A program made the position numbers and the translations under genes. From assembly GCA_964611205.1 (NCBI GenBank), contig CAZSZB010000001.1:123144-187143 (forward strand): a stretch of 64,000 nt of DNA, given 5' to 3'. This DNA comes from an uncultured Candidatus Saccharibacteria bacterium. GTDB lineage: Bacteria; Patescibacteriota; Minisyncoccia; Phycocordibacterales; UBA918. Shown here in pieces: positions 3,923 through 45,552 of the stretch. The stretch's first letter is position 1. Each line of letters opens with the position of its first letter. A model generated the notes under the pieces. That model worked only from the letters and a program-made list of their open reading frames with translations, searched no databases and was not told where the DNA came from.

Positions 3923-4017
3923 CAACAATCGCCTGTAAATAGTCTAGTATAGCGATTTTTACTCGGACTTTACAATTGTAAAAGTCGTGTTATTGTTCTT
4001 GGCAGGAGGAAAAAGCA

Positions 4018-4209
4018 ATGAAAGCAGATCTATATTTGGACCTTACCGACTTGGAGGTTCTGTCTACCTCCGAGGAAATGGTCGACGGAGAGAAGGTTAC
4101 GACGATGACTATTCGTCTCGGAAGTGACCGACGAGTGATCATGGTCAGGTATAAAGACGAATTGCCATGCATACTCCTTTTCGGTCGGCCGAACCTGGAA
4201 TGCTTCTAG
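4018..4209 (+). CDS. Hypothetical small protein (63 aa) in a GC-rich islet
   Basis: A strong SD (AGGAGG, 8 nt before the ATG) and an intrinsic terminator follow immediately. GC content is ~50%, versus ~37% in the flanks. I see no recognisable family. Confidence 0.5.
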   Translation: MKADLYLDLTDLEVLSTSEEMVDGEKVTTMTIRLGSDRRVIMVRYKDELPCILLFGRPNLECF

Positions 4210-4230
4210 GTTCGATAATTACACAACGAA

Positions 4231-4258
4231 AAAGACGGCGCCCCGGTGCCGTCTTTTC
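4231..4258 (+). terminator. Rho-independent terminator
   Basis: GACGGCGCC..GGTGCCGTC hairpin followed by TTTTCTT. Confidence 0.65.
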
Positions 4259-4261
4259 TTA

Positions 4262-4365
4262 TTGTGTTGTGTATAACTGTGGCAGAGGGTGGGGTGAGGT
4301 GGTATATACTATAGGAGTGGTGGGAGATAGTGGTATACTGTGAAAACAGTATAACTGTCGAGATT
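4262..4365 (+). promoter_or_regulatory. mraZ promoter/operator region with GTGG(G/T) and GTATA(A)CTGT direct repeats
   Basis: Repeats seen: GAGGGTGGGGTGAGGTGGTATATACT...AGTGGTGGGAGATAGTGGTATACTGTG, plus GTATAACTGT twice. MraZ proteins bind direct GTGGG-type repeats in their own promoter. Confidence 0.4.
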
Positions 4366-4800
4366 ATGTTAATAGGAGAATATACACATACACTAGATCC
4401 TAAGAAACGGCTGTCCATTCCGTCTAAATGGCGGAAGGAACTTGGGAAAAAGTTGATCCTTACACGGGGTCTCGACAACTGTCTCTTTGTATATCCGCTG
4501 CGTGAGTGGCAAAAGGTCAGTGAAAAAATTGGCCAATTGCCGCTCGGTCAGGCGGACACAAGAAGCTTCAATCGCTTCTTTCTTTCAGGAGCAGTAGAAG
4601 TAGAGGTAGATAGTGTTGGACGTATTCTCGTTCCAGATTTCTTAAAGGAATTTGCAGTACTAGATTCAAAAGTAGTATTAGCAGGTATCCATGATCGTGT
4701 GGAAATTTGGGATGAGAAGAAATGGACTCAGTACAAACGTGAGATCGAAACCAAAGCTGATCAGTTAGCTGAAAAGCTGGGCGACATCGGAGTACTTTAG
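4366..4800 (+). CDS. mraZ: Transcriptional regulator MraZ
   Basis: The MLIGEYTHTLDPKKRLSIP N-terminus and the duplicated MraZ fold match the family. The ATG at 4366 fits the conserved N-terminus. The track's GTG at 4330 is rejected. Confidence 0.9.
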   Translation: MLIGEYTHTLDPKKRLSIPSKWRKELGKKLILTRGLDNCLFVYPLREWQKVSEKIGQLPLGQADTRSFNRFFLSGAVEVEVDSVGRILVPDFLKEFAVLDSKVVLAGIHDRVEIWDEKKWTQYKREIETKADQLAEKLGDIGVL

Positions 4801-4827
4801 TTCGTATCTTCTACCACACAAAACACT

Positions 4828-5727
4828 ATGCAACACATAACGGTTCTAGAGCATGAAGCTGTTGATTTATTGGGTCTAAAAAAAGATTCAGTAGTCGTCG
4901 ATTGTACCTTAGGTAGTGGCGGACATGCCAAGTACATACAAACAATACTTGGTGAAAAAGGACATTACATAGGTATCGACGCTGACCCAACTGCAATAAC
5001 AGCTAACGAAGAGTTAAAAAATTCTTCAGTTGCTAAGGTCACATTATTAAAAGCAAATTTTCGTGACATAGACCAAGTGTTGTTAACAGCTGGTGAAAGT
5101 GAGGTGGATGCCATTTTGGCTGACCTAGGTTGGAGGATGGAACAATTCTCTGGTTCAACAGATTTACCAAGAGGTTTTTCTTTCCAGAGTGATGAACCAC
5201 TACATATGACTTTTGGTGAGCCGAGTAGTCATCCATTTACTGCTTATGACATTGTAAATGACTGGGCCGAAGAGGATATAGCGAATGTCATTTACGCTTA
5301 CGGCGGTGAAGGATTTTCACGACGGATTGCGACAGCTATCGTCGCAGCTCGTAAAAATTCACCGATAGAGCGAGCTAGTCAGTTAGCAGAGATTGTGGAA
5401 GAGTCAGTGCCTGCCTTCTACAGAAGACAAAAAACACATCCAGCCACCAAAACCTTTCAGGGTTTACGTATAGCAGTCAATGATGAACTGGATGCACTCA
5501 GTGAATTGATAAGTAAAGGTTTCTCTTCACTTAAATCAGGTGGTCGACTAGCCATCATTACTTTTCACAGCCTTGAAGACCGGATAGTTAAACACAGCTA
5601 TCGAAATTTAGTCAGCGATCAAAAAGCAGTTTTAGTAAACAAAAAACCAATAGTTCCAAGTCCTGAAGAATTATCAACCAATCCCAGAAGCAGAAGCGCA
5701 AAACTAAGAGTAATTGAAAAAAATTAA
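4828..5727 (+). CDS. rsmH: 16S rRNA (cytosine1402-N4)-methyltransferase RsmH (MraW)
   Basis: SAM-binding motif DCTLGSGGH is present and the gene sits after mraZ. Confidence 0.92.
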   Translation: MQHITVLEHEAVDLLGLKKDSVVVDCTLGSGGHAKYIQTILGEKGHYIGIDADPTAITANEELKNSSVAKVTLLKANFRDIDQVLLTAGESEVDAILADLGWRMEQFSGSTDLPRGFSFQSDEPLHMTFGEPSSHPFTAYDIVNDWAEEDIANVIYAYGGEGFSRRIATAIVAARKNSPIERASQLAEIVEESVPAFYRRQKTHPATKTFQGLRIAVNDELDALSELISKGFSSLKSGGRLAIITFHSLEDRIVKHSYRNLVSDQKAVLVNKKPIVPSPEELSTNPRSRSAKLRVIEKN

Positions 5728-5728
5728 T

Positions 5729-6049
5729 ATGAACAAGAAGAGAATGCAAACAATAAATTATGATCGGATAGTTTTTATTGTCCTGGCTTTTGCTTGCATC
5801 GGGATGGTTGCTTTATATATGTACTTTGTTAGCGCTTCGATTGTTCACGTTGTGATAAGAAAAGAAGTAGGGCAAGATTTAGTCAGACTTAGTTCTGAGG
5901 TTAGTGAGTTAGATTCCAAATACATAGCAGCGCAACACGCTATGAGTAATCAAATTGCAACTTTAGAAGGTTATCATGAAATAGAGAACAAGATTTTTAT
6001 AAATAGAACTTCAGCCAACCTGGCTCTGTCCAAGACTATCGAACCGTAG
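5729..6049 (+). CDS. ftsL: Cell division protein FtsL-like (single-TM, coiled coil)
   Basis: It lies between rsmH and ftsI and has a single TM helix (IVFIVLAFACIGMVALYMYFV). Identification is based on size and position. Confidence 0.6.
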   Translation: MNKKRMQTINYDRIVFIVLAFACIGMVALYMYFVSASIVHVVIRKEVGQDLVRLSSEVSELDSKYIAAQHAMSNQIATLEGYHEIENKIFINRTSANLALSKTIEP

Positions 6050-6122
6050 CGCAGAATCTGATATGATTCTAATGAATTTTTCTGTATCAATCCGCTCACA
6101 GAATAATTTTCTGTAACTGACA

Positions 6123-7838
6123 ATGAGAAAACAAGCAATAATTAGAATCCGAATAATCACCTCTGTAGTACTGCTTTTGGCAGTTATTCTTTTAATTAAA
6201 CTCTATTATATACAGATATTTAGCCACGATAAATATGTAGAGGAAGCAGAGAGTCAGTATGTTCACACTGTAAATGATTTGTACTCTAGAGGTAATATTT
6301 ATTTCACAGCCCGTGATGGTAGTAAAGTATCAGCCGCAACAGTCCAGGCTGGTTATTTGTTAGCTATAAATCCATCTCATATTAAAGATGATGAATCAGT
6401 TTATTTAAAATTGAATGAAATTGTAGAAATTGATCGTGATTCCTTTATGCGTAAAGCTGCTAATAAGGATAAGGTTTATCAAGAAATATTATCGCAAATA
6501 AATAAAGAAGAAGCGGATCGTATAGAGAAGCTAGGACTTGATGGTGTCCAGATGTATCGTAACCAGTGGCGTTACTATCCCGGAGATAGTCTGTCAGCCC
6601 GTACCATCGGCTTTGTTGGTTACTTTAAGGATTCTAATCAATTGACTGGTCGCTATGGTCTAGAACGCTATTATGATGATGTTCTTTTGCGTGACCGAGA
6701 CAGATTGTCAGTTAACTTTTTTGCCGAAATATTTAGCAATCTAGGTAATGTGATTTTTGATAACTCTGACTCTCGCTCGGGAGATGTTATCACTTCTATT
6801 GAACCAACAGTGGCTAGGGTATTAGATCAACAACTCTATGCCGCCCAGAATAAATGGAATAGTGATCTCACTGGCGGTATTATTATTAACCCTAAAACAG
6901 GGGAGATATATGCGATGAATGTAGTACCTACCTTCGATCTTAATGATCGCAAAGGAGTGGACCTTAGTGATTTTAGAAATCCTTTAGTAGAGAACGTATA
7001 TGAGTTTGGTTCTATTATAAAAGCTCTAACAATGGCTGCTGGTTTAGATAGTGGAGCGGTAAATGCTGCTACAACTTATTATGATAGTGGAAAGATGACT
7101 CTTGATGGTTTTACTATCGGTAACTATGATGGACGAGGTCGGGGAACTGTGTCGATGCAGGAGGTACTTAATCAATCGCTTAACACGGGAGTATCGTTTG
7201 TGGTAGAAACAATGGGTAAAGATAAGTTTCGAAATTATTTCAAAGACTTAAAATTGGGTAATGAAACAGGGATTGATTTACCAAATGAAGCTTTTGGTTT
7301 GATAGCAAACTTAGATTCTCCAAGAAAAATAGAATATGCGACAGCTTCCTTTGGTCAAGGGATTGCGATGACGCCAGTATCAATCGTTCGAGCTTTATCA
7401 GCTCTAGGAAATGGGGGTAAACTAATTTCTCCTCACATAGCGACAGCTATTGAGTATAAGGATGGTGAGGTTAGAAAAATAAGTTATCCAGAAGGTGATC
7501 AGGTTTTTTCAGCGGCTACTAGTGAAGAGATTTCTCGTATGTTGACAGTGGTAGTAGATGAAGCGTTGGCAAAAGGGGAGGTAGCTCTGCCAAATTATTC
7601 TGTAGCGGCCAAGACAGGAACAGCCCAGATCGCCGACCCGGTACATGGTGGTTACTATGGGGATCGTTATCTGCACTCATTTTTCGGTTATTTCCCATCA
7701 TACGACCCGGAATTTTTGATATTTCTTTATACGGTAGAACCGAAAAATGTTAAGTACGCATCAGAAACACTGACAGAACCCTTTATTGAGCTAACTAAAT
7801 TCTTGATAAATTATTATGATTTGCCACCAGATAGGTAG
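6123..7838 (+). CDS. ftsI: Peptidoglycan D,D-transpeptidase FtsI (class B PBP, division-type)
   Basis: SIIKALT (SxxK), SLN and AAKTGTA motifs are present, with an N-terminal TM. It sits in the dcw cluster. Confidence 0.88.
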   Translation: MRKQAIIRIRIITSVVLLLAVILLIKLYYIQIFSHDKYVEEAESQYVHTVNDLYSRGNIYFTARDGSKVSAATVQAGYLLAINPSHIKDDESVYLKLNEIVEIDRDSFMRKAANKDKVYQEILSQINKEEADRIEKLGLDGVQMYRNQWRYYPGDSLSARTIGFVGYFKDSNQLTGRYGLERYYDDVLLRDRDRLSVNFFAEIFSNLGNVIFDNSDSRSGDVITSIEPTVARVLDQQLYAAQNKWNSDLTGGIIINPKTGEIYAMNVVPTFDLNDRKGVDLSDFRNPLVENVYEFGSIIKALTMAAGLDSGAVNAATTYYDSGKMTLDGFTIGNYDGRGRGTVSMQEVLNQSLNTGVSFVVETMGKDKFRNYFKDLKLGNETGIDLPNEAFGLIANLDSPRKIEYATASFGQGIAMTPVSIVRALSALGNGGKLISPHIATAIEYKDGEVRKISYPEGDQVFSAATSEEISRMLTVVVDEALAKGEVALPNYSVAAKTGTAQIADPVHGGYYGDRYLHSFFGYFPSYDPEFLIFLYTVEPKNVKYASETLTEPFIELTKFLINYYDLPPDR

Positions 7839-7934
7839 AAGTATTTATCTATACAAGGTAAAATCTACAAATGACGTGTCTTGAGGGAAGTGTGCTACTG
7901 AATATCCAATTAAACAATATACAATCTTTACGGT

Positions 7935-10278: not shown

Positions 10279-10314
10279 TGAACGCCCCGAACTGATGTCC
10301 GGGGCGTTTGGTTT
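10279..10314. terminator. Bidirectional intrinsic terminator between convergent genes
   Basis: AACGCCCCG...CGGGGCGTT 9-bp stem, with a T-run on the + side and an A-run on the other side. Confidence 0.65.
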
Positions 10315-10877
10315 CAGGCGAATCCCGCCGGAGAACCATAGAGTATAGAATCCATGATTTCTTCCGGTGTTACTCGCAAGGGCATCCCGCATACTTCCTG
10401 ATCCTTGTTCAGTCGGAAATGGGGTTTGGTAGTCAAGAACACAGCGATATTCGGCAGGCAAAGCTCGTAAGAGCTTACCGCTATATCGACGAAATGGGAA
10501 ATCGGATTTTCCGTCAACCCAATCTCACCGTCGAAGTGTAGCTGCGAGCGGTAAATGATGAACTCACTCGTATAGCCTTCCTCATCTGTCTCAACCATGT
10601 GACAGATTGTCCCCACGATCTCTTGGTTGATGAGGTTGAGCAGTCTCAGGAACTCATTCCGGAGAAAGGCTTGCACTGGCGATATCTGCACCAGTAGTTC
10701 CAAGGTCAGCATATTGCCAATATGGCTGATCTGGGCATCATGGATTCCTAGCTTCGATCGCGTAGTGAAAATGATGTTTTTCTGGAAGAGTTCATCATGT
10801 TCTTCTACCTCCCATCCTTTGCCAGCCAAGACATCGGCCACTGTCACGAGGGTTTCTGATTGGTGTATGTTTCCCAT
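10314..10877 (-). CDS. Hypothetical cytoplasmic protein (possibly a YbjN-like sensory regulator fold) in a GC-rich islet
   Basis: 187 aa with a strong SD (GAAGGAG) and ~48% GC. The family assignment is tentative. Confidence 0.55.
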   Translation of the reverse strand: MGNIHQSETLVTVADVLAGKGWEVEEHDELFQKNIIFTTRSKLGIHDAQISHIGNMLTLELLVQISPVQAFLRNEFLRLLNLINQEIVGTICHMVETDEEGYTSEFIIYRSQLHFDGEIGLTENPISHFVDIAVSSYELCLPNIAVFLTTKPHFRLNKDQEVCGMPLRVTPEEIMDSILYGSPAGFA

Positions 10878-11067
10878 TTAAGAACTCCTTCTAGCTACTC
10901 TATTTCTAACCTATAAAAGAACTTTAAGCAAAGCAAAACTATTGGTAATTTGAGATTTGCAGATAATCTGTTACTATTTTGCTCACCGATATCGGTTTGC
11001 TGTATATAAATTGGTCCACCACAAGAGCATATCCATTTTTATGGTCGCTAACACTTCCTAAAAATTT

Positions 11068-11139
11068 GGTCCCATCGTCTAACGGCTAGGACACATGGTT
11101 CTCATCCATGAAATCGGGGTTCGATTCCCCGTGGGATCA
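11068..11139 (+). tRNA. tRNA-Glu (anticodon CUC)
   Basis: I folded the cloverleaf by hand: acceptor GGTCCCA/TGGGATC, anticodon stem CATGG/CCATG, loop TTCTCAT, T-arm CGGGG-TTCGATT-CCCCG. No CCA is encoded. Confidence 0.85.
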
Positions 11140-11306
11140 CGAGTACAGAAAAGAGCACTTAACATTTTGTGAAGTGCCTTTTCTGTTCGTGATCCCACGA
11201 GCAAGAGTGCCTAAGCACTCTTGCGTGGGAATCGAAAAGCTTTTGTGACAGATTCGACCAAAGGGAGAATATGTCCAAAAGGTGTACAGTTCATGTAATG
11301 AAAGAT

Positions 11307-11322
11307 TTCCCCGTGGGATCAC
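11307..11322 (+). repeat. Direct repeat of the tRNA-Glu 3' end (16 nt, TTCCCCGTGGGATCAC; the first copy at 11125-11140 is inside the tRNA)
   Basis: An exact 16-nt duplicate lies 182 bp downstream of the tRNA 3' end. An inverted partial copy (GTGATCCCACGAG) is at 11190-11201 and a near copy (CGTGGGAATC) at 11224-11233. This is an att-like signature. Confidence 0.6.
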
Positions 11323-11328
11323 ACAGAC

Positions 11329-11374
11329 AAGACAGCAAGAGACTACTTCTTAAGAAGTAGTCTCTTGCTGTCTT
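11329..11374. repeat. Near-perfect 46-nt palindrome (42-nt perfect core GACAGCAAGAGACTACTTCTT|AAGAAGTAGTCTCTTGCTGTC)
   Basis: I verified it base by base. The region from 11140 to 11500 also holds further hairpins at 11130-11201, 11194-11229, 11377-11392, 11422-11451 and 11464-11477. Confidence 0.8.
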
Positions 11375-11585
11375 AGAGGCTGAACTGTTTCAGCTTCGGT
11401 CTGTGTGATGGCCACAGCGATGTTTCTGTCCTGTGCCTTAAGGACAGAAACCGCGAGGCGAGTGAGGAGTGACTCAATGTCACTTCGCAAATTCGAATGA
11501 AAGGTTTTGTCTTTGGATAAAAGAGGGAGGGGCAATAGTCTTAAATCATAGTGCCTTGGGTGTTTAACAAACGTTATCATTCAAA

Positions 11586-11945
11586 CTACTCCTTCCTCCC
11601 ACAAACACCTTTAACCACGACTTCTAACTCTTGAATATCGAAATTTTCGAGGCCGAGGAGTTTTTTGATAGATTCATCTGGGGCAGTGAAGTGGATTACT
11701 TTATTGCAGTCGGTACAAAGGGCGTGATGATGAGGTTCTGTTTGGTATTCGTAATGCACCTCATCGCTACCTAAGTTGACCTCCTTGATTAATTTTTCTT
11801 GTACAAATAAATCTAAGTTGCGATAGATAGTAGTTAAATCTATCGCGGGTAACTTAGTATGAATATCTTTGGCAGAGAGGGTACCACATTGCTTTTTTAG
11901 CACTTCTAATATTTGCTTTCGTTTGGGTGTTAGACGTAATGACAT
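11586..11945 (-). CDS. zur: Fur-family metalloregulator (likely Zur)
   Basis: Winged-helix N-terminus, HHH motif and C-terminal CxxC motifs (CTDCNKV...CGRK) are present. It is divergent from a ZIP zinc transporter. The ATG at 11945 is preferred over the track's TTG. Confidence 0.85.
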   Translation of the reverse strand: MSLRLTPKRKQILEVLKKQCGTLSAKDIHTKLPAIDLTTIYRNLDLFVQEKLIKEVNLGSDEVHYEYQTEPHHHALCTDCNKVIHFTAPDESIKKLLGLENFDIQELEVVVKGVCGRKE

Positions 11946-12005
11946 ATGCAAGTGATTTGCATTTTAACATTTGATTGTTATACTGGCAATTGCAAATCAT
12001 TTGCA
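11946..12005. promoter_or_regulatory. Divergent zur/zupT control region with two 7-1-7 palindromic operators and a promoter
   Basis: Operator 1 is TGCAAGTGATTTGCA (11947-11961). Operator 2 is the perfect palindrome TGCAAAT-C-ATTTGCA (11990-12004). The promoter is TTGCAT-16-TATACT (with TGn), with the -35 overlapping operator 1 and the start site overlapping operator 2. Confidence 0.5.
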
Positions 12006-14062: not shown

Positions 14063-14180
14063 GATGTAAAATTATTGCTAGTTGCATGAGTTTTCCTATA
14101 AATTTAGACAAAATAAAACCGCCCGACTCAAGTATGAGCCGAGCGGTTTCGGTTCATCTCAGGTCAAGCGGTGGGCGCAA

Positions 14181-14666
14181 TCAACGGATGTTGCGCACGT
14201 TCTCCCACTCTTCGACGGAGTCGTTCATGGTCCGCATGATCCGCCGCCGCCTGACCATTCTGCCGATCAAGTTGTTGACAACTATGATGATCGGAAATAA
14301 TCCGATGACCATGAAAAGCAGCCACCCACTCAGCCACCCTGACTCGTTCGAGAACGGCGCAACCGTAAAGCCGTATAGATAGCTCCAGCAGAAGGCAGTA
14401 GTGGTCATTGTAAGTCCCACTCCAATTTGGGACTTAGTGTCGACATCCTGATTGACATGGTTGCGTTGTAGACCGGATACTTCCAGGCTCCAGTTGACGA
14501 AGCCGACAAGCCCGAAGAATAAGGCCATGATGAACAGCACTCCCGTCCAATCACCTGTATTTTCAACAGAGCTGTTCGCCCATACTTGGCTCGATATGTC
14601 CCCAAGATGGATTGCTATCGGAATAGCGGCGAGAGAAAAGATGACAAAGAGCATGATGATGCGCAT
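14181..14666 (-). CDS. Hypothetical 4-TM membrane protein in a GC-rich islet
   Basis: 161 aa with SD GGAGGG 7 nt upstream and ~50% GC. It is hydrophobic throughout. The opposite-strand ORFs are rejected. Confidence 0.55.
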   Translation of the reverse strand: MRIIMLFVIFSLAAIPIAIHLGDISSQVWANSSVENTGDWTGVLFIMALFFGLVGFVNWSLEVSGLQRNHVNQDVDTKSQIGVGLTMTTTAFCWSYLYGFTVAPFSNESGWLSGWLLFMVIGLFPIIIVVNNLIGRMVRRRRIMRTMNDSVEEWENVRNIR

Positions 14667-14768
14667 GGTGGACCCTCCAGTTAACGCACTAAGTTCATTG
14701 AAATTTTAGCTATAAAAACCATAAATATCAATACTTCACTATATTTTATTTATGACTCAATAAATAAA

Positions 14769-21812: not shown

Positions 21813-21818
21813 AATAAG

Positions 21819-21850
21819 GCCCGGGTTGCTTAGTGTGCATCCCAGGCCAA
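21819..21850. terminator. Bidirectional hairpin between truB and a convergent small gene
   Basis: GGCCCGGG...CCCAGGCC imperfect stem. Confidence 0.45.
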
Positions 21851-21854
21851 GTGC

Positions 21855-22048
21855 TTATTCGTCGATCCGTTCCAACTTACCGTCGGCTGCTCTGATGCAA
21901 GGATGACCGTGCACTAGAACGATACCTTCAGGCAAACCGTTTGGATAGGTATGCTCGAGAAAGTCATCTGGTTTGGAGGTAGGGAAGATGTGTCGCTCAT
22001 CACCTTCCTCACCAATCCAGTTTCTCTCACCTCTTTTTCGTTTGCTCA
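21855..22048 (-). CDS. Hypothetical small protein (64 aa, MSKRKRGERNW...) in a GC-rich islet
   Basis: A G-rich SD sits 8 nt upstream and GC is ~52%. The longer 97-aa track ORF is trimmed to the SD-supported start. Confidence 0.45.
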
Positions 22049-22131
22049 TTTTAGACCCCCGTTTAAAGTGGTCCCCCCAGGCAAACATTACTAGTATTAA
22101 AACACTTTTAAAGATTTTGTAAAGACTAAAT

Positions 22132-22162
22132 AGAAAAGGACGCCACACAGATGCGGCGTCCT
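22132..22162 (-). terminator. Rho-independent terminator for the 22190..22448 gene
   Basis: GGACGCC...GGCGTCC hairpin followed by TTTTCT on the minus strand. Confidence 0.6.
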
Positions 22163-22189
22163 AGGAGGGGCCTGAAGCCCAGGATAGGC

Positions 22190-22448
22190 TCAGGTCCATT
22201 CAATTCCGTCCTCGTCTACGATGGACAGATCAGGATCGTAGCAGCCCAACTGGTTGCCCGGCTGGTTTTTTCCGGACATGTCCGTCTGCTTACGCAGAGC
22301 AGTGTTGGCCGTGATGACCTCCTCCAGATCCTTCTTTTCTTTTCTGCGGCGGGCGGATTCTTTGCCACCTTTGCTGGAAAGGTAGCGGTGATGTTCTGGA
22401 TCTTCTTCAGCCAAACGCCGAAAGAAGTCAGCAGATTTTTTACCCATT
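22190..22448 (-). CDS. Hypothetical small basic protein (85 aa) in a GC-rich islet
   Basis: SD AAGGAGG 6 nt upstream of the ATG (MGKKSADFFRR...) and a downstream terminator. GC is ~52%. Confidence 0.5.
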
Positions 22449-22581
22449 GGGACCTCCTTGTTATGGGTTCTGCTACTATTAAACAACAAATTGAACAAAA
22501 AGTCTAGACTAGTTGATTATGTAATAAATTATCCTATTAAACAGGTTTGCAGATAACTATATCGAAGGTAGTATTAAAATT

Positions 22582-22791
22582 ATGGAATCAGAAAAATCAC
22601 ATACCCCCAATTTCAACGAGGCTATGCTACATTTGCAGTCTTTAAGAGCTAGGTTTGCCAGTGAAGGCAATGTAGATAGTGAGTTTGATCAATTAGCAAA
22701 CGTAGAAAAGAGGCTTTTAGTTGGAGATATAACAGCGAAAGAAGCTATGGAAGAAGGTAATAGAATAGCAGCTGGCCGGATTGAACGCTAG
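22582..22791 (+). CDS. Hypothetical small protein (69 aa)
   Basis: The ORF has host-like composition but no clear SD and no recognisable family. Confidence 0.3.
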   Translation: MESEKSHTPNFNEAMLHLQSLRARFASEGNVDSEFDQLANVEKRLLVGDITAKEAMEEGNRIAAGRIER

Positions 22792-27143: not shown

Positions 27144-27181
27144 AAAATGCCCCATACTGAGACATTTCTCAGTATGGGGCA
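27144..27181. terminator. Perfect 14-bp-stem hairpin terminator (GCCCCATACTGAGA-CATT-TCTCAGTATGGGGC)
   Basis: It lies between convergent rmuC and the 27207..27572 gene. An A-run precedes it, and a T-run follows on the minus strand. Confidence 0.75.
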
Positions 27182-27206
27182 TGAGTCTGTGGTCGCTCCA
27201 CGTCTT

Positions 27207-27572
27207 TCAAAGAGGGCGCATTGGAGGGACTCGTCTTGCTTTGAGTCGAGTTTCCAGGCAGTCTTTCTCTTTGAAAAAAACCCGAGCATAACTGACAAAT
27301 GAGGCCTGTTGGTTGGCGGTTAAGCCAATACAGGGCACATATACATTCCAGACCACTATTCTATCCTTCGCTAAAGTCCAGAGTTGAACCTCTTTCCGGA
27401 AACGGATCCGGTATTTCATACCTCTTATCTTGTTGTTCTCAACGCTGAGGGTCAGGTTTTCTGGTCCGCATATGTATGAGTGCAAAGGTAAGGCTGAAAG
27501 ATTGGTAATCCAGCGCTTTTTCAATTGTGGCATCTTGATGACGATCGTGCAGTCGAGTTTCTGAGTCATTAG
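27207..27572 (-). CDS. Hypothetical protein (121 aa) in a GC-rich islet
   Basis: SD GGGAGAAGGG upstream of the ATG (MTQKLDCTIV...). GC is ~47%. The track ORF is trimmed to this start. Confidence 0.5.
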   Translation of the reverse strand, partial: LMTQKLDCTIVIKMPQLKKRWITNLSALPLHSYICGPENLTLSVENNKIRGMKYRIRFRKEVQLWTLAKDRIVVWNVYVPCIGLTANQQASFVSYARVFFKEKDCLETRLKARRVPPMRPL

Positions 27573-27732
27573 TAGAACCCTTCTCCCTGGTTGCAGGTCT
27601 GTTGCAAATTTACAATATCCTATTGCAAAATACAAGTTTTTCTTGTACTATTTGGCTCATTATTGTTTCTAGAGTAGTTATTGCCACCCGATCAGCAGTG
27701 ACGTTTAGATGATAAATATTTAATTTATAAAC

Positions 27733-29119: not shown

Positions 29120-30520
29120 CTAGAAATCATCATCAGGAATAGCAGCGCCAGCGCTGTGTTGGTTGTCGAGATTTAAGAAACGTACATGTTGGCCGTCAAA
29201 GTATAATTCACAGCTACCAACAGGACCATTGCGATGTTTTTCTACCATTATTTCAGCGATGTTTGGCCGTTCTGATTCTTTATTGATTTTGTCTTCGCGA
29301 TGAATAAACATCACCACGTCAGCGTCTTGCTCAATAGATCCAGAGTCTCGCAAGTCGGATAGGCGAGGTTTGCCACCGCGCTGCTCAACCGCACGAGATA
29401 ACTGTGATAAAGCTAATACAGGTACTTCTAATTCGCGAGCCAACTGTTTAAGTGACCGAGAAATTTCGGTAACCTGCTGCACCATCGAATCGCTGGCTTT
29501 AGAAGCAGTAGGATGCATAAGTTGCAGGTAATCGACAATCAGTAAGTCCAGCCCGTGTTCGTTCTTTAGCCGTCTAGCAGAGGAACGCATCTTGAGAATG
29601 TTTGTACCTGGTTGATCATCAATATGAATAGAAGCTTCAGAGAGTTTTGCCATCGCTGTCTGGACAGCCTCAAATTCCTGATCGGTTCGTAATTTCCCAG
29701 TTCGTAATTTCCAAGAGTCCACCCCAGCTTCAGCCGCTAACATACGGTCAACCAACTGTTGGTCGCTCATCTCAAGAGAAAAGATACCGACTTTCGCACC
29801 GTGTTGTAAGGCTGCATTACGCGCTAGATCGAGGGCAAAGGTAGTTTTTCCCATTGAAGGTCGGGCAGCTAATATTATCAAGTCCGATTTTTGTAACCCG
29901 GCCAAGATATTATCGAGTGACCCAAAACCGGTAGGGACACCTCTTTTTTCATTCTGGTTAGCACTAAGATACTCGAAACGTTCCCAGGCTTCTGATAATG
30001 AAGAACCAATGGTTTTAAACTTTTGTGAGGTTGTAGAATTTGTGACTCCGTATACTTTTTTCTCAGCTTGATCTAATGTTTCATCTATATTTTCAGGGTC
30101 AGAAAATCCAAGCTCAGCTATATCGTCAGCAGCGTTGATTAGGCCGCGTAAAATAGCCCTAGACTGGACCACTTCTCCGTAGTAATTAGCATTACTGGCG
30201 GCTGGAACTTGTTCTACTAATTCCGTTATATAACTAGCTCCGCCAACTCTTTCTAATTGGTTATTGCTCTTGAGTTTATTGGTAATCGAAAGCATGTCTA
30301 TAGGATCACCTTTAGTGAAGACTTCCAAGATAGCGCGATAGATTTCACGATGTTTATCAGCATAAAAACTCTCAGGATAAACCATTGTAGAAATATCATG
30401 CATAACTTCTGGCTTGAGGATAATGGCTCCAATGAGAGCTTTTTCAGCCTCTATATTATGTGGCGGAGTACGCAAACTGCGGTTAGTTTTAGGAGGTTCA
30501 GATTTACCATAAGTGGCCAT
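29120..30520 (-). CDS. dnaB: Replicative DNA helicase DnaB
   Basis: N-terminal DnaB domain NIEAEKALIGAIIL, Walker A GKTTFALD and the RecA-like C-terminus are present. There is no intein. Confidence 0.92.
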   Translation of the reverse strand: MATYGKSEPPKTNRSLRTPPHNIEAEKALIGAIILKPEVMHDISTMVYPESFYADKHREIYRAILEVFTKGDPIDMLSITNKLKSNNQLERVGGASYITELVEQVPAASNANYYGEVVQSRAILRGLINAADDIAELGFSDPENIDETLDQAEKKVYGVTNSTTSQKFKTIGSSLSEAWERFEYLSANQNEKRGVPTGFGSLDNILAGLQKSDLIILAARPSMGKTTFALDLARNAALQHGAKVGIFSLEMSDQQLVDRMLAAEAGVDSWKLRTGKLRTDQEFEAVQTAMAKLSEASIHIDDQPGTNILKMRSSARRLKNEHGLDLLIVDYLQLMHPTASKASDSMVQQVTEISRSLKQLARELEVPVLALSQLSRAVEQRGGKPRLSDLRDSGSIEQDADVVMFIHREDKINKESERPNIAEIMVEKHRNGPVGSCELYFDGQHVRFLNLDNQHSAGAAIPDDDF

Positions 30521-39703: not shown

Positions 39704-39707
39704 GAAC

Positions 39708-41592: not shown

Positions 41593-41994
41593 ATGGCCCT
41601 TTCAGGACTTAACTCAGTAGAAGTTACTGACACATCCTATGGGCAAATTGTAACAGTAGCGACTAATCTGAGTGAAGAAAATGCTTCTACTGAAGAAATT
41701 GTTCGACAGTATTTCTCAGATATTCCGGTGATGATTCAAGTTGCTCGTTGTGAGTCTCACTTTAGACACACACTAGCAGACGGAACCGTTCTACGGGGAG
41801 TAGTTGATAATCGAGATCTTGGGGTAATGCAAATCAACACCTATTATCATGGTGAGCAAGCGAAAAACCTCGAACTTAATCTTGAAAATATTTACGATAA
41901 CATGGCCTATGCTCGTGACTTATATGAGCGACAGGGTACTCAGCCATGGAGTGCATCGGCCCCATGTTGGAGTCGTACACTTGCATCGCTATAA
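41593..41994 (+). CDS. Lysozyme-like (SLT/GH23-type transglycosylase motif) small protein, with no signal peptide, in a GC-rich islet
   Basis: ARCESHF...DLGVMQIN...YARDLY matches the ES...GLMQ...Y pattern of lytic transglycosylases. There is no SD and no signal peptide. The start is uncertain. Confidence 0.45.
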   Translation: MALSGLNSVEVTDTSYGQIVTVATNLSEENASTEEIVRQYFSDIPVMIQVARCESHFRHTLADGTVLRGVVDNRDLGVMQINTYYHGEQAKNLELNLENIYDNMAYARDLYERQGTQPWSASAPCWSRTLASL

Positions 41995-42045
41995 CATTCT
42001 CCTGTTGAATGCCTAATATTGCAAAATATTGAGTTGAGACAAATA

Positions 42046-42080
42046 ACAAAAAACACTGCTTCCAAGAAGCGGTGTTTTTT
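42046..42080. terminator. Bidirectional terminator
   Basis: AAAAAACACTGCTTC-CAAG-AAGCGGTGTTTTTTGTT. Confidence 0.6.
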
Positions 42081-42089
42081 GTTATCTAG

Positions 42090-42497: not shown

Positions 42498-42546
42498 AAA
42501 TAGCAGTTATTTAAATATATAATATAATCTATATTATACTGTATCT

Positions 42547-43032: not shown

Positions 43033-43035
43033 AAT

Positions 43036-44250
43036 ATGGAATCTCTTACTTCAGTACTGAAAAGATTGTCAGTTAAAAATATTACGTACAAGGAAGGTTT
43101 TGTACAGTTATTCATTTCAAAAAGGCTTATCCAAGGGCTTGCTGCTGCAATGTTCGCTTTGTTTGTACCGATCTTTATTTACGAGACAAGTGGTCATGAA
43201 TTCTGGGTAGTGGGTTTATTCTATGCTTTTCTAAGTTTTTTATACGCAGGGCTGTTAGTGCCTGGCATGGAATTGACTAACAGAATAGGTTTCAGTAAAG
43301 CGTTAGCTTTGAGCGCTGTTTTTGCAGTTGGGCAGTATTTTACACTGTATTTTATGAATGCTGAGAATATCTGGATGCTGCTCTTAATCTTAGCAGTATT
43401 CACTACTGGTTTTCGTATTTTTCACTGGGTGCCTTACCAGGTTGATTTTACTTCATTTACCGATACCCATACACGAGGGCGTGATGTCTCGTTGATGTTT
43501 GCCACGATAGCATTTATGGGTGTGATTGGTCCGCTTTTAGCTGCTTTTATAATTACTAAAGCTGGTTATCAGATGCTGTTTATAGTCGGGATGATTTTGT
43601 TATGTATGGCTGCTTTCTCATATTTATTTGTGCCAGCCGTAGAACAAGAGTTTACTTGGACTTACAAAGAAACTATAACTCACTTATTCTCTAAGAAATA
43701 TCGAAATGTGATGGTGGGGGAGATGGCCAATGGGGCTGAGTTAGTTGTGACCTTGATAGCCTGGCCTATTTTCTTGTACGAAATAGTAAACGGTAATTTA
43801 TTGGAGATTGGTTTATTATCGACAGTGATTGTGGGGGTAACAATAGTTATACAGTTGTTGGTTGGTAAACATCTAGACAAAGAGGGCGCTAACAAAATTA
43901 GTACGCTAAGAAAGGGAAGTGTACTTTATGCAGCCGGTTGGATTTTTAAAATGTTTGTTCTCTCTGCCACTCAAATATTTTTTGTTGGTCTATATCACAA
44001 CATCACAAAGATTTTCATCAAGACCCCGTACAGTGCGATTTTGTATGACATGAGTGCAGAGCAAGGACAGTATATAGATGAATTTACAGTGTTACGAGAA
44101 ATATCCGGTCATGTAGCCAGAGCATTCGCTTTGCTGCTGATGGTACTACTGACTCTTTATTTGTCGATTGAGTGGACGTTTATCATTGGAATTATAGCTT
44201 CTTTAACTATAAATTTAGTTTATTACACTAATGTGAAAACTGAAGGGTAA
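43036..44250 (+). CDS. Multi-TM transporter (MFS-like)
   Basis: It has ~12 predicted TM helices. The family is not certain. Confidence 0.6.
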   Translation: MESLTSVLKRLSVKNITYKEGFVQLFISKRLIQGLAAAMFALFVPIFIYETSGHEFWVVGLFYAFLSFLYAGLLVPGMELTNRIGFSKALALSAVFAVGQYFTLYFMNAENIWMLLLILAVFTTGFRIFHWVPYQVDFTSFTDTHTRGRDVSLMFATIAFMGVIGPLLAAFIITKAGYQMLFIVGMILLCMAAFSYLFVPAVEQEFTWTYKETITHLFSKKYRNVMVGEMANGAELVVTLIAWPIFLYEIVNGNLLEIGLLSTVIVGVTIVIQLLVGKHLDKEGANKISTLRKGSVLYAAGWIFKMFVLSATQIFFVGLYHNITKIFIKTPYSAILYDMSAEQGQYIDEFTVLREISGHVARAFALLLMVLLTLYLSIEWTFIIGIIASLTINLVYYTNVKTEG

Positions 44251-44254
44251 GTGA

Positions 44255-45247
44255 TCATTCATCCGTTTTTTCTTTATTGTTACTGTCCTTACTTCCACTG
44301 TGGAATTTTTGATGAATGTCTCGTAAACGTTTGTTTGTAACGTGAGTATAGATTTGGGTAGTAGCAACGTTTTGGTGCCCTAACAGCTCTTGTACGCTAC
44401 GTAAGTCAGCTCCATGATCTAGAAGATCTGTTGCATAGGTGTGACGCAATGTGTGGGGAGTAACCTTCTTTGATAGACCAGCCATGATGGCCGAACGAGA
44501 AATCATTTTCTGAATCGAACGAGGTGTCAAACGATTATCTTCCGCGTCTCGTGATCGATAATTTATAAACAAAGGTTTATCAACATCACGACGTGATTCT
44601 AAGTATTTTCTAAGCCATTTAGCAGCTCGGGGAGAAATAAAAATAGTCCTAATGTGCTTACCTTTACCAACTATTGAAAGCTCGTAAGTTCGTTTAAGGT
44701 CTTTGTCCTTGAGCATTGTAAACTGATCGGCATCTAATGCTGTTAATTCTGAAATACGCATGCCTGAAGAGAAAAATAGTTCCATAATGGCCCGGTCACG
44801 TATCCCAGACGGTTTTTTGATGTCAGGAATTTTCAACATAGCTTCTATGTCGTGTACATCTAGAAAAGAAATCGTCTCTTCACTTTTTTGTTTAGCTAAT
44901 TTTATTTTGGAGGAGGGGAGAGACTCAATATCTCGTTCTGCTAGATAGTTTAATAAAGCTCGTAATGCTATTAGATAGTAATTTTGTGATTTTTTGGAAA
45001 GATACTCTCCGCGGGGGGTTTTGTATTTACGTGCTATAAAAAGACGATAGTCCCAAACATGTTCGGCTGTAAGTTCGTGTGGCTTTAGGTTTGGTTTCTT
45101 GATTTCATTTAACCACTTCACAAACAGATTAAGATACTGCTGATAGTTTCTTTGGGTGTTACTAGAAAGTCCCTTTTCGATTTCACAGTAATCTAGAAAA
45201 GGTAAAATGTGATCGACAATTGATTCGTTGCTTTTGCGGAGGGCCAT
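44255..45247 (-). CDS. xerC: Tyrosine site-specific recombinase (XerC/XerD-like)
   Basis: N-terminal SAM-like core-binding domain. Catalytic R...HxxR...Y motifs (HTLRHTYAT, LGHQNVATTQIYTHV) are present. Confidence 0.85.
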   Translation of the reverse strand: MALRKSNESIVDHILPFLDYCEIEKGLSSNTQRNYQQYLNLFVKWLNEIKKPNLKPHELTAEHVWDYRLFIARKYKTPRGEYLSKKSQNYYLIALRALLNYLAERDIESLPSSKIKLAKQKSEETISFLDVHDIEAMLKIPDIKKPSGIRDRAIMELFFSSGMRISELTALDADQFTMLKDKDLKRTYELSIVGKGKHIRTIFISPRAAKWLRKYLESRRDVDKPLFINYRSRDAEDNRLTPRSIQKMISRSAIMAGLSKKVTPHTLRHTYATDLLDHGADLRSVQELLGHQNVATTQIYTHVTNKRLRDIHQKFHSGSKDSNNKEKTDE

Positions 45248-45302
45248 AGTATATTGATTTTAGTGTTCTTTAATTTTAACCCATAGGAAGGGAGGGGAGT
45301 AG

Positions 45303-45506
45303 ATGTCTAAAACGACTCACAAAGGAAGATGTCCAAACAATCCGGTTGGTCTGCCAGACCCCAAGTGGTCTAAGCGGGTCATCAGCAAAGACCAGGGTCT
45401 GGACGCCCTGACGCTGCAAAACGAAGCAGACCAAGCAGGGTATGAACTGTGGCGACGGTTCATCTGGTACCTGGCAAGCATAGCTCGCGGTAGCGGCTTG
45501 CAGTGA
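45303..45506 (+). CDS. Hypothetical small protein (67 aa) in a GC-rich islet
   Basis: SD GGGAGGGGAG 4 nt before the ATG, with a hairpin terminator right after the stop. The overlapping minus-strand ORFs are rejected. Confidence 0.45.
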   Translation: MSKTTHKGRCPNNPVGLPDPKWSKRVISKDQGLDALTLQNEADQAGYELWRRFIWYLASIARGSGLQ

Positions 45507-45515
45507 GACCGTAGA

Positions 45516-45544
45516 GTAGGGGCTTTTCCAGCCCCTACTTTCAA
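45516..45544 (+). terminator. Rho-independent terminator (GTAGGGGCT-TTTCC-AGCCCCTAC + TTTC)
   Basis: 9-bp stem followed by a T-rich tract. Confidence 0.6.
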
Positions 45545-45552
45545 TAGTATAT

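Follow-up and report, generated by a model that had tools for sequence, protein, structure and literature searches.

The window analysed in the present study, a stretch of 64,000 nucleotides with a GC content of 38.7%, carries conserved core genes and, scattered between them, short GC-rich genes preceded by Shine-Dalgarno (SD) sequences, hereafter referred to as islets (Table 1). The observation of GC-rich, SD-led islets, on which the original prediction was based, is largely real and was partly confirmed. Three of the eight ORFs listed in that prediction were off by 1-3 nt and out of frame, and the corrected coordinates are those given for i4, i5, and i6; i9 was absent from the list.

Table 1. 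Islets and other features of the window, with GC3 of the ORFs
Feature	Positions	Strand	GC3	Elements
i1	4004-4257	+	0.59	promoter-like TTTACA-16-TATTGT upstream, 3969-3996; SD AGGAGG 4004-4009; ORF 4018-4209, 63 aa; terminator hairpin 4230-4257
i2	10281-10890	-	0.58	SD AAGGAG 10885-10890; ORF 10314-10877, 187 aa; terminator hairpin 10281-10308
tRNA-Glu (CTC)	11068-11140	+		found by ARAGORN and Rfam
Structured block	11141-11374			hairpin ~11145-11187; 134-nt element 11189-11322; perfect 46-nt palindrome 11329-11374
i9	11350-11600	-	0.44	SD GGGAGGAAGGAG 11589-11600; putative ORF 11350-11580, 76 aa
i3	14115-14731	-	0.66	promoter TTGATA-17-TAAAAT 14703-14731; SD GGAGG 14674-14678; ORF 14181-14666, 161 aa; terminator 14115-14150
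i4	21818-22049	-	0.46	directly past truB 3' end; GGGGG before ATG; ORF 21855-22049, 64 aa; GC-rich hairpin ~21818-21848
i5	22137-22459	-	0.58	SD AAGGAGG 22453-22459; ORF 22190-22447, 85 aa, highly charged; terminator 22137-22162
i6	27147-27587	-	0.52	weak SD-like GGGAGAAGGG 27578-27587; ORF 27207-27569, 120 aa; terminator hairpin 27147-27182
ORF 41593-41994	41593-41994	+	0.31	133 aa, SLT-like; seventh islet of the original prediction, ordinary native gene
Xer-type recombinase gene	44255-45247			at the GC-skew switch
i8	45286-45538	+	0.59	SD-like GGAAGGGAGGGGAG 45286-45299; ORF 45303-45506, 67 aa; hairpin 45516-45538 with poor T tract

Composition and signals of the islets

Core genes had a GC3 of 0.323 ± 0.038 (maximum 0.404, n=57) and a GC1+2 of 0.41. 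Six islets (i1, i2, i3, i5, i6, and i8) showed 46-54% GC and a GC3 of 0.52-0.66, which was matched by none of the ~850-1500 core segments of the same length compared with each ORF. Third codon positions account for most of the excess, with an islet GC1+2 of 0.43-0.52, and a raised GC3 combined with a nearly normal GC1+2 is what a coding sequence with an evolutionary history at ~50% GC would be expected to show. In i4 (p ~0.02) and i9 (p ~0.03), GC3 was only modestly raised and did not exceed GC1+2. Regarding the ORF at 41593-41994, 69% of same-length core segments had a GC3 at least as high and no SD was present; it was rejected as an islet on these grounds. A possible TGTAAT box was noted by eye ~10 nt before its ATG, and its Pfam SLT_3 match (E 4.6e-4) was below the curated threshold.

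The statement that housekeeping genes lack an SD held, since a GGAGG/AGGAG-type motif 4-10 nt before the ATG was found at only 3 of 58 core genes, approximately the chance level. Among the islets, tested as the eight originally listed ORFs minus 41593-41994 plus i9, the motif was present in 7/8 (Fisher p = 1.2e-6). The claim of a strong SD on every islet went too far for the weakest starts, namely i4, which has GGGGG only, and i6, the motif of which is weak and distant from the start. Core genes typically carry a TATAAT-like box 4-12 nt 5' of the ATG, with the -10 box abutting the start codon in 21 of 48, which suggests that the core mRNAs of this small-genome Patescibacterium are leaderless. 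By comparison, -10-like boxes were located 36-47 nt upstream of i1, i3, and i8, and an own promoter was recognized for i3 and i1 only.

An intrinsic terminator had been ascribed to each islet. The top four terminator-like hairpins within 3.5-23.4 kb are those of i1, i2, i3, and i5, and i6 ends in a perfect 16-bp hairpin followed by TTTTT, while the GC-rich hairpins of i4 and i8 have weaker T tracts; terminators are also present at core genes, and, thus, this feature is not exclusive to islets. As originally stated, the islet proteins have no recognizable family: none was over the threshold in Pfam, NCBIfam, PHROG, or PADLOC, and no Rfam family was found for any islet, even at E ≤ 10. The islets are not an assembly artefact because their joins to core neighbours were recovered at 99.4-100% identity in independently assembled contigs from several other sequencing runs.

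Individual islets and the tRNA-Glu junction

i1 is shown to be coding by its substitutions relative to a divergent allele in the strain contig L001, which is otherwise ~0.2% divergent. Of the 59 mismatches in this contig, 36 fall within 4022-4169, being distributed over codon positions 3:1:2 as 18:12:6 (manual count), with dS 0.60, dN 0.14, and dN/dS 0.23. i1 has, therefore, visibly been replaced in a co-occurring strain by a divergent allele, the GC3 of which is 0.72. No i1 homologue was detected in ~190 related loci.

The suggestion that i2 is YbjN-like was supported through its homologues (21-30% identity), which are located convergently downstream of murF in L133/L134 and L096; those of L133/L134 are SD-led with an own terminator. 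All three i2-family sequences matched Pfam YbjN (PF10722; best E 1.4e-10), the profile alignment of i2 being nearly full-length, although its own score of 16.2 bits does not reach the curated cut-off of 22 bits. Functionally, the YbjN family is poorly defined. A word-indexed search of 5.8e9 proteins returned i2 itself as the sole match. We regard i2 as a putative YbjN-like cytosolic protein.

i3 has 16 relatives (phmmer, 1.84e9 representatives; best 41% identity), and is a member of a small family of membrane proteins that is restricted to the clade. An SD precedes 7/7 family members in six contexts despite only 22-41% protein identity to i3, and most members have their own -35/-10 promoter, with a TTGACA/TTGATA -35 in 6/7 (manual reading); the 5'UTR and terminator sequences are kept among the closest members. 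The AlphaFold model (pLDDT 79.7) comprises four long helices and showed no significant fold match in the PDB. i3 is, thus, predicted to be a four-helix membrane protein.

i4 and i5 share the truB-yqeY slot. A 63-aa homologue of i4 (MQKRKPGERHW...; phmmer E 6e-4 among 15,730 ORFs) follows truB in L023 in the identical position and orientation, with a GGGAG SD and a terminator. A small-protein family that occupies the same slot and strand in L018, L036, L042, L046, and L051 gave a weak profile match with i5 (E 0.003, small database); this match is suggestive only. In the closest relative found, L006 (RmuC 90% and DnaB 91% identical), the slot contains three different small genes, neither i4 nor i5.

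In strain contigs, i6 is missing from the majority of gene calls, and related loci yielded no homologue; it is likely a protein gene because its GC3 exceeds its GC1+2. i8, which has a GC content of 0.54, lies between the Xer-type recombinase gene and a dif-like palindrome. Three overlapping ORFs on both strands are present at this site, the unit has a folding z-score of -4.0, a gene was predicted on one contig only, and no homologue was found; i8 may be a protein gene or an RNA.

The region at 11140-11500, which had been considered similar to the islets, is of a different kind, consisting of copies of the tRNA-Glu 3' end and hairpins at a strain-variable junction. Two copies of the tRNA-Glu 3' end (TTCCCCGTGGGATCAC), one inverted and one direct, close the 134-nt element, and three copies of this 16-mer were counted versus 0.2 expected by chance. 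The block has a folding z-score of -13.9 and no Rfam family. Directly past the tRNA-Glu 3' end, assemblies from other samples are interrupted or switch to another sequence. Contigs L001 and L002 terminate at 11139/11140, and an unrelated sequence follows in L003. Strain contigs extend as far as 11345, and in the ERZ926210 strain the point of divergence falls between 11140 and 11176. The strong SD of i9, spaced by 8 nt, overlaps the end of a fur-family gene (11586-11951), and its stop codon is at the centre of the palindrome. Located at the 3' end of the fur-i9 unit, the palindrome is a possible terminator of this unit. The putative ORF was predicted by gene callers on five contigs, and no homologue was found among related loci.

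Variable slots and the origin of the islets

Core synteny is tight with ~40 relatives, and the slots vary, with lengths of 332-2217 bp for truB-yqeY, 66-2545 bp for rmuC-rplU, and ~150 to ~1800 bp for the lysS-mraZ gap (manual reading of match coordinates). As was to be checked for the original prediction, the islet slots are empty or otherwise filled in most relatives; some contain small, unrelated ORFs, and several clusters of these have an SD. Islet homologues are patchy (1-5 of ~40-80 loci), and no relative was more than 50% identical to any islet outside its own species cluster. All homologues were found in Patescibacteria-like genomes with a start-proximal -10 box at their own core genes, those of i2 and i4 in the same syntenic slot as here and those of i3 in six such contexts. 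In L178, leaderless-type mreB, murA, def, fmt, and hpf (GC3 0.36-0.49) are interspersed with six SD-led genes without a Pfam match, five of which have a GC3 of 0.55-0.69 and the sixth 0.40. Since SD-led small genes accompany leaderless-type core genes in relatives as well, the SD is a property of a gene class in the clade and not the mark of an outside donor.

Considering these results, the explanation that we favour, to which we give about an even chance of being correct, is that the islets are small, self-contained accessory genes circulating within a Patescibacteria (Paceibacteria-like) clade, with alleles imported from members of higher GC. Each unit consists of an SD leader, an ORF, and its own terminator in an intergenic slot between conserved core genes. 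Transcription of the core genes would start from promoters without a -35 element, often with an extended -10 box, that lie immediately next to the ATG and yield leaderless mRNAs, whereas the accessory units, with leaders of ~25-45 nt, would depend on the SD for initiation. Recombination with clade members of higher GC would have brought in the islets or their present alleles, and a GC3 of 0.5-0.66 would be kept because drift to the AT-rich host composition is not yet complete. What is observed comprises the shift in composition, the use of an SD as opposed to a start-proximal -10 box, the variable slots, the clade-restricted homologues in the same slot, and one allele replacement; we infer the leaderless state of the core mRNAs, the direction and timing of transfer, the flanking homology that would mediate insertion, and the cellular roles. 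Higher-GC clade members are probably the source and plausibly so from the i3 family, the GC3 of which is 0.80 in the 62%-GC host L190, similar to its neighbours (0.80-0.88), and 0.50-0.80 in lower-GC hosts with ~0.35-0.49. No donor was found among the sequences searched, and clade-wide GC3 statistics are confounded and lend no support to transfer.

Variable slot occupancy together with the i1 allele replacement makes horizontal acquisition a reasonable reading; however, the recency originally proposed does not apply to i4, i5, and i6, which are unchanged across five to six strain contigs with ~99.7% identity and, hence, predate the present population. This invariance gives no sign of recent movement, and the presence of i2, i4, and possibly i5 homologues in the matching slot of distant relatives is also expected under vertical descent. 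Both points favour the alternative, which we consider unlikely but of appreciable probability, that the islets are long-resident, fast-evolving lineage genes, in which GC3, SD, and terminators are kept without import by selection for stable, structured, leadered mRNAs, such as long-lived or conditionally translated messages. The retention of the SD throughout the divergent i3 family is consistent with such residence. Islet ORFs had a mean folding z-score of -2.4 versus -0.09 for core segments against shuffled controls (range -0.9 to -3.9), six of the eight being below the lowest of 28 core segments, and SD-led genes of other genomes were also more structured than their leaderless-type neighbours (-1.43 versus -0.51, p = 0.02), a weaker effect. 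This excess, which transfer alone does not predict, suggests selection on islet mRNA that could itself raise GC3 and keeps the selection-based alternative alive. On the other hand, the i2 homologues of L096 (GC3 0.33, z -0.45) and L133 (GC3 0.49, z -0.05) show neither a GC excess over their hosts nor structure, and, thus, the property is not intrinsic to the family; moreover, the z-score of i3 is only -0.9, the i1 allele swap is a real exchange, and the distribution is patchy.

It is improbable that the islets originated outside the clade, whether in an SD-using host or partner of higher GC, as originally proposed, or in phages or plasmids. GC3 and SD are sharply unlike those of resident core genes, most islet proteins are orphans, as is often the case for phage-derived genes, and the tRNA-Glu junction near i2/i9 behaves like an integration site; however, every homologue lies in a Patescibacteria-like context with leaderless-type core neighbours, phage and defence profiles (PHROG, PADLOC) as well as NCBIfam gave no match, two insensitive IMG/VR scans were empty, neither an integrase nor repeats or target-site duplications were found next to the islets, and the recombinase nearby is Xer-type at the GC-skew switch. 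Least probable of all is that some islets are structured RNAs or GC-rich remnants with chance ORFs due to the rarity of stop codons, as the overlapping ORFs on both strands of GC-rich stretches, the inconsistent gene calls, strongly negative folding z-scores, and lack of detected homologues of i8, i6, and i9, and the GC3 of i4 and i9 might suggest, because substitutions in i1 are codon-periodic, homologues of i2, i3, and i4 were found at the protein level and match them in length, each ORF extends from an SD or SD-like start (weak for i4 and i6) and ends shortly before a hairpin, and Rfam gave no family.

Comparison with known systems

Genomic islets and flexible accessory genes are compositionally atypical, horizontally acquired, and swapped at conserved slots by homologous recombination. 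The present islets resemble them in their atypical GC3 with near-normal GC1+2, patchy presence, syntenic slots, and allele replacement between strains, but are single genes of 63-187 aa and not multi-gene islands, are GC-richer and not AT-richer than the host, and, save for the separate tRNA-Glu block, have no integrase, tRNA association, or repeats. They also differ from host genes in the mode of translation initiation and, for i3, in promoter type.

Leaderless and SD-led genes are mixed in bacteria such as Mycobacterium and Deinococcus. Most core genes here similarly lack an SD and a minority has a canonical one; however, this minority coincides with a compositionally distinct class of small accessory genes with structured mRNAs. 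Tsurumaki et al. (2022, PMC9297842) reported detection of the anti-SD motif for only 48% of the 16S rRNAs of Parcubacteria. A full-text literature search for leaderless with Patescibacteria, CPR, Parcubacteria, or Saccharibacteria returned no title or abstract on such a class.

The family of small selfish cassettes that had been envisaged did not emerge, since the islets have no common sequence, flanking repeats, target-site duplications, or att-like sites, and the only recombinase nearby is that of the Xer type. Integron cassettes likewise consist of one small gene, in most cases an orphan, with an imperfect inverted repeat downstream of it. In contrast to them, no integron integrase was found in the present case, the hairpins resemble ordinary terminators without an attC-like consensus, the genes are scattered and not arrayed, and at least i3 and i1 carry their own promoter-like -35/-10 elements.

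Composition and expression signals of the islets

Regarding the small GC-rich islets scattered among AT-rich core genes, the pattern reported in the original prediction is real and statistically solid. Six of these ORFs (i1, i2, i3, i5, i6, and i8) have a GC content at third codon positions (GC3) of 0.52-0.66, against 0.323 ± 0.038 in the 57 core genes compared (maximum 0.404), and each of these values was matched by none of ~850-1500 core segments of the same length. GC3 is raised only modestly (p ~0.02-0.03) in i4 and in i9, a newly found ninth ORF led by a Shine-Dalgarno (SD) sequence, which lies just downstream of a fur-family gene. Since GC at the first and second positions is near normal in every islet, the excess is located at synonymous positions. 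When the ORF coordinates were re-derived, those of three islets (i4, i5, and i6) proved to be out of frame and were corrected (Table), while the SLT-like ORF proposed as a further islet failed the composition test; with a GC3 of 0.31 and no SD, it is an ordinary gene. Chimeric assembly was checked, and islets and core neighbors were joined in contigs from several other runs at 99.4-100% identity.

Table. Coordinates of the features discussed, in the window unless another contig is named
Feature	Position	Strand	Remark
i1	4018-4209	+	lysS-mraZ slot
Alternative call at i1	4167-4343	+	58-aa ORF spanning the i1 terminator, called instead in one strain contig
i2	10314-10877	-
Structured block	11140-11500		Beside tRNA-Glu
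Copy of last 16 nt of tRNA-Glu	11189-11204		Inverted
Copy of last 16 nt of tRNA-Glu	11307-11322		Direct
i9	11350-11580	-	Downstream of fur-family gene
Terminator after i3	14115-14150		GAGACCGAGAACCGCTCGGCTCA..GTCGGGCGGTTTT
i3	14181-14666	-
i4	21855-22049	-	truB-yqeY slot
i5	22190-22447	-	truB-yqeY slot
ORF between i5 and yqeY	22582-22791	+	69 aa, no SD
i6	27207-27569	-	rmuC-rplU slot
Core genes with start-proximal box (examples)	26051, 28095, 29120-30520, 35051, 51361-52419, 62839-63324
SLT-like ORF	41593-41994		Ordinary gene
XerC/D-like recombinase gene	44255-45247
i8	45303-45506	+
dif-like imperfect palindrome	~45555-45581		GGTTCGCACAATATATGTAAAACGAAC
Perfect 15-nt inverted repeat	45553-45567, 46124-46138		Bounds 556-bp stretch of 25% GC
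Class II aminoacyl-tRNA synthetase gene	56173-57528
T-box-leader-like element	57634-57827	-	Directly upstream of the synthetase gene
Tandem i3 paralogues	L178 7410-8462; L191 2524-3576		Between murA and a 629-aa gene
Terminators of two adjacent small genes	L173 1938-2010, 2581-2650		Near-identical GAGACCGAGAACCGCTCGGCTCA..GTCGGGCGGTTTT

The predicted contrast in SD usage was borne out: an SD 5-mer stands 4-10 nt before the start in seven of the eight islets, whereas the core genes have one in only 3 of 58 cases, close to chance level (Fisher p = 1.2e-6). Of 48 core genes, 21 have a TATAAT-like hexamer whose end lies 4-12 nt ahead of the ATG, with a positional peak at 6-11 nt; in a control window placed farther upstream, the count is 6 of 48. 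TGn accompanies 8 of these 21 boxes, and a -35 element with at least 4/6 matches only three. This arrangement suggests that core mRNAs are mostly leaderless and transcribed from -35-less promoters. Core genes of relatives with 40-62% GC have it too, and it is, thus, a trait of the clade. The -10-like boxes of i1, i3, and i8 lie 36-47 nt upstream, leaving room for short SD-bearing leaders. Concerning the terminators ascribed to each islet, the four strongest terminator-like hairpins within 3.5-23.4 kb are those of i1, i2, i3, and i5, and that of i6 is perfect over 16 bp, but the hairpins of i4 and i8 are weaker and core genes have terminators too.

A 16S rRNA gene was not found in the window, in the ~190 related loci, or in contigs extending both window ends, and a published survey of Parcubacteria found the anti-SD motif (CCUCC) in just 48% of their 16S rRNAs (PMC9297842). 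A GGAGG-type motif is kept in the members of the deeply diverged i3 family and in the i2 homologue of the relatives L133/L134, while that of L096 has a weak AAAGG only; this retention suggests that SD pairing works in the hosts of the i3 family and of the L133/L134 homologue.

At least three further genomes of the clade show the same contrast between leaderless-type, AT-rich, unstructured core genes and accessory units that are SD-led, GC3-rich, and structured, with terminators and, where seen, promoters of their own. Leaderless mRNAs in Patescibacteria or CPR/Parcubacteria were not addressed in the literature searched, nor, as judged by titles and abstracts, in papers on Saccharibacteria, and we found no description of this contrast there.

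Islet families and their genomic slots

TruB and its neighbors share 50-90% identity with proteins from MAGs assigned to Minisyncoccia, Kaiserbacteria, Nomurabacteria, Paceibacteria, and "Patescibacteria group", and gene order is shared with those MAGs across more than 15 kb, which identifies the window as a piece of a Paceibacteria-like candidate-phyla-radiation genome. With a GC content of 38.7%, it stands at the low end relative to the relatives' loci (39-57%). The order FAD-oxidase/PIF1 helicase/YgjP/Na-Ca exchanger/truB/yqeY/(ATPase)/rmuC/rplU/recR/dnaB is kept in approximately 40 relatives, and the islets occupy gaps, or slots, between such syntenic core genes. The slot containing i4 and i5 measures 1017 bp in the window and 332-2217 bp in relatives, that of i6 599 bp and 66-2545 bp, respectively, and that of i1 ranges from ~150 to ~1800 bp in relatives as read from hit coordinates.

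The syntenic positions are empty in several relatives (slots of 66-2545 bp) or differently filled, and the islets are not conserved core genes; the relatives compared for slot content include no same-genus genome. Where slots are filled, they carry different small ORFs that cluster patchily, with 3-5 genomes per cluster and an SD before several of the ORFs, and in the closest relative, L006, three different small genes fill the truB-yqeY slot. Genes resembling i2, i4, and i5 were found in only 1-5 relatives: in L133/L134 and L096, i2-like genes are convergent and lie just beyond the dcw cluster, an i4-like gene in L023 is convergent and directly follows truB, and a possible i5 family occupies the truB-yqeY slot in the orientation of i5. 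As homologues sit at the same places, the islets are accessory yet native to the clade. The ORF between i5 and yqeY is called in every strain contig, and L009 and L012-L014 have a family of plus-strand ORFs of similar size in its slot. The minus strand carries i2, i9, i3, i4, i5, and i6, which are six of the eight ORFs that are SD-led or GC-rich, and all of these six except i9 are convergent with the preceding plus-strand core gene.

For i3, 16 relatives, with conserved motifs and at most 41% identity, were present among 1.84 billion representatives. Its confident structural model is a four-helix membrane protein (pLDDT 79.7) with no significant neighbor in the PDB (best E 0.5). We compared seven members in six contexts, namely, the window, L172, L173, L177, L178/L191 with two tandem paralogues, and L190. 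All seven are SD-led and followed by a hairpin and T tract, and, by our own reading, six have a TTGACA/TTGATA-type -35 and a -10 box ~35 nt upstream, the family promoter being a full TTGACA-N17-TAnnnT, whereas the neighbors mreB, murA, def, fmt, hpf, and murG carry the start-proximal -10 box. Even 5'UTR and terminator sequence is common to the copies in L172, L173, and the window. Family GC3 is 0.50-0.80 in hosts with a core GC3 of ~0.35-0.49; in L190 (62% GC), the homologue is at the level of its neighbors (0.80). L178, an independent genome, repeats the picture of the window: six SD-led genes without a Pfam match, five of them with a GC3 of 0.55-0.69, are interspersed with leaderless-type core genes of 0.36-0.49. 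The paralogues of L178/L191 are diverged, and each has an SD and hairpin of its own. Near-identical terminators follow two different adjacent small genes in L173 and i3 in the window and may be a reused 3' module.

The guess that i2 is YbjN-like gained support from its homologues, which are 21-30% identical and occur in three metagenome contigs; all three sequences of the homologue alignment match Pfam YbjN (best E 1.4e-10), although i2 alone scores 16.2 bits against the 22-bit cut-off of PF10722. The single-sequence structure model of i2 (pLDDT 38) is not usable. A 63-aa homologue of i4 in L023 shares the N-terminus MxKRKxGERxW, and i5 is linked only weakly, by profile, to a family of small proteins; its likeness by eye to KGG-repeat stress proteins lacked Pfam support, as did that of its possible slot family. 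Protein-level constraint is implied by homologues for i2, i3, and i4 and shown for i1 by the ratio of nonsynonymous to synonymous divergence described below. No homologue of i1, i6, i8, or i9 was found among the ~190 related loci, and PHROGs, PADLOC, and NCBIfam returned nothing meaningful for the islet proteins. Folding z-scores of i6, i8, and i9 are -2.3 to -3.3. Because three ORFs overlap at i8 and the unit folds with z = -4.0, i8 is a candidate RNA and might be an RNA rather than a protein gene. Rfam 15, at the gathering threshold and at E ≤ 10, gave no credible RNA family in any islet; a sub-threshold STnc320 match overlapping the i1 terminator (E 0.22) is at chance level. Gene callers treat the islets unevenly: i4, for which the disagreement is at 22088, is called as 64, 77, or 97 aa, and i6 is mostly uncalled, although one caller ignored its TGA stop and produced a 179-aa product.

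Proposed origin and exchange of the islets

Direct evidence of exchange is provided by i1. The strain contig L001, from another sample, matches the window with 99.5% identity along 10.8 kb, and 36 of its 59 mismatches cluster in 4022-4169, so that a region with a dS of 0.6 is embedded in a contig otherwise ~0.2% divergent; the incoming allele has a GC3 of 0.72. The differences are distributed over codon positions 3:1:2 as 18:12:6 (manual count), replacements are conservative, and dS (0.60) and dN (0.14) yield a dN/dS of 0.23; this third-position bias and ratio mark i1 as a protein under purifying selection. The differences are those of a diverged allele, and a diversity-generating retroelement target was rejected because all substitution types occur, with codon periodicity and no specificity for A.

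The original prediction envisaged repeated recent acquisition of foreign genes from a higher-GC partner or host, or of selfish cassettes. Its view of accessory and exchangeable genes stands, while an outside source and cassettes are not supported, and one of its eight islets was misplaced. Very recent arrival does not apply to every islet: five to six strain contigs of ~99.7% identity carry i4, i5, and i6 without a single difference. We are evenly balanced between accepting and doubting the account that the islets were transferred within the clade from higher-GC members. On this account, the simplest for the data, small accessory genes would travel inside the clade as complete expression units, settling in inter-operon slots or being replaced there, probably via recombination in conserved flanks, and the copies in the window would derive from higher-GC clade members and not yet have been ameliorated. 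A clade-wide GC3 excess of SD-led over other genes (+0.036, p = 2e-5) was not used as support because it is confounded: unfiltered small ORFs rise alike in AT-rich hosts, and an SD is likelier in GC-rich DNA.

Transfer alone does not predict the excess mRNA structure of the islets. Relative to dinucleotide-shuffled controls, the islet ORFs, terminators excluded, have z-scores of -2.7, -3.9, -3.3, -0.9, -1.6, -2.0, -2.4, and -2.3, against -0.09 ± 0.82 (minimum -1.93) in 28 core segments, and a weaker version is seen in other genomes (SD-led genes -1.43 vs -0.51, p = 0.02). The islets may be resident genes in which selection for structured, perhaps long-lived mRNAs itself raised GC3, an explanation that we regard as rather doubtful and that fits poorly with the i2 homologues in L096 and L133, which are neither structured nor GC-rich relative to their hosts. 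Transfer and selection are not mutually exclusive.

With respect to a higher-GC host or partner as the donor, no homologue outside Patescibacteria was found; islet homologues are confined to Patescibacteria-like contigs, one at 62% GC, and none is closer than 41% identity. Selfish cassettes are opposed by the lack of shared sequence, repeats, duplications, or a dedicated recombinase: no repeats flank i1, i3-i6, or i8, the hairpins differ in sequence, no attC-like or terminal repeat is common to the islets, and neither a motif shared among them nor a likeness to other SD-led genes of relatives was found. Integrons and selfish cassettes have a shared recombination site or shared terminal repeats and a dedicated integrase or transposase, none of which is seen among the islets; the recombinase encoded next to i8 matches XerC and XerD best in NCBIfam (234 and 225 bits) and the integron-integrase model with 102 bits only. 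The islets resemble acquired genomic islets in deviating composition and patchy syntenic presence, but not in integrase, repeat, or tRNA signatures of mobility. A phage origin lacked support: in PHROGs, i5 alone had a match, a weak one to phrog_2412 (E 0.007, function unknown), and PADLOC gave nothing; IMG/VR returned nothing for i2 and i3 in a scan that needs exact 8-residue words and is blind to distant relatives.

Patescibacteria (CPR) genomes are rich in small hypothetical genes, the expression and exchange of which are poorly known. A broader interpretation, which we consider unlikely, is that this branch of Patescibacteria runs a two-tier architecture of gene expression separating a conserved core from a fluid accessory pool. 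Core genes would have -35-less or extended -10 promoters abutting the ATG and leaderless, unstructured messages with host-typical AT-rich codons. Small accessory genes would combine a full -35/-10 promoter and an SD leader with third positions rich in GC, excess mRNA structure, and a strong terminator, which would constitute a portable, clade-wide "plug-in" gene format. They might be translated under particular conditions only or, where a lineage has lost the anti-SD, be kept silent or follow a non-canonical route. If the contrast between core and accessory genes is genome-wide, sequence alone could tell the two apart in uncultured organisms; such a contrast would also account for the inconsistent calling of small genes, provide a concrete test case for the reported anti-SD loss in Parcubacteria, and point to clade-internal gene flow, not host uptake, behind the novelty of reduced genomes.

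The tRNA-Glu block and the putative terminus region

The structured block beside tRNA-Glu, originally noted for a composition similar to that of the islets, is something else. It folds with z = -13.9 and consists of four parts: a hairpin directly after the tRNA; a 134-nt element bounded by two copies of the tRNA's last 16 nt, one inverted and one direct; a perfect 46-nt palindrome, possibly the terminator of the fur-i9 unit; and the 3' half of i9. In assemblies from other samples, breaks are seen at 11140 and 11345, and one strain differs between 11140 and 11176. The block looks like an integration or excision scar at a tRNA target and like an integration hot spot with strain-specific content; att-like repeats occur only here, separate from the islets. 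In a comparison that covered 11125-11322 of the window, L003, and L184, contigs from other samples stopped at the tRNA, and in one strain the sequence beyond it was unrelated.

Cumulative GC skew peaks at ~45.4 kb, where gene orientation flips, which suggests a replication terminus; based on the skew, the minus-strand islets of 3.9-28 kb are oriented head-on to replication. The XerC/D-like recombinase gene, the dif-like palindrome, and the AT-rich stretch with its inverted repeat are found at this spot. The only other Rfam matches in the window were the tRNA-Glu and a sub-threshold T-box-leader-like element (42.6 bits vs the 93-bit threshold, E 4.6e-6) preceding a synthetase gene, which is probably a divergent but genuine T-box.
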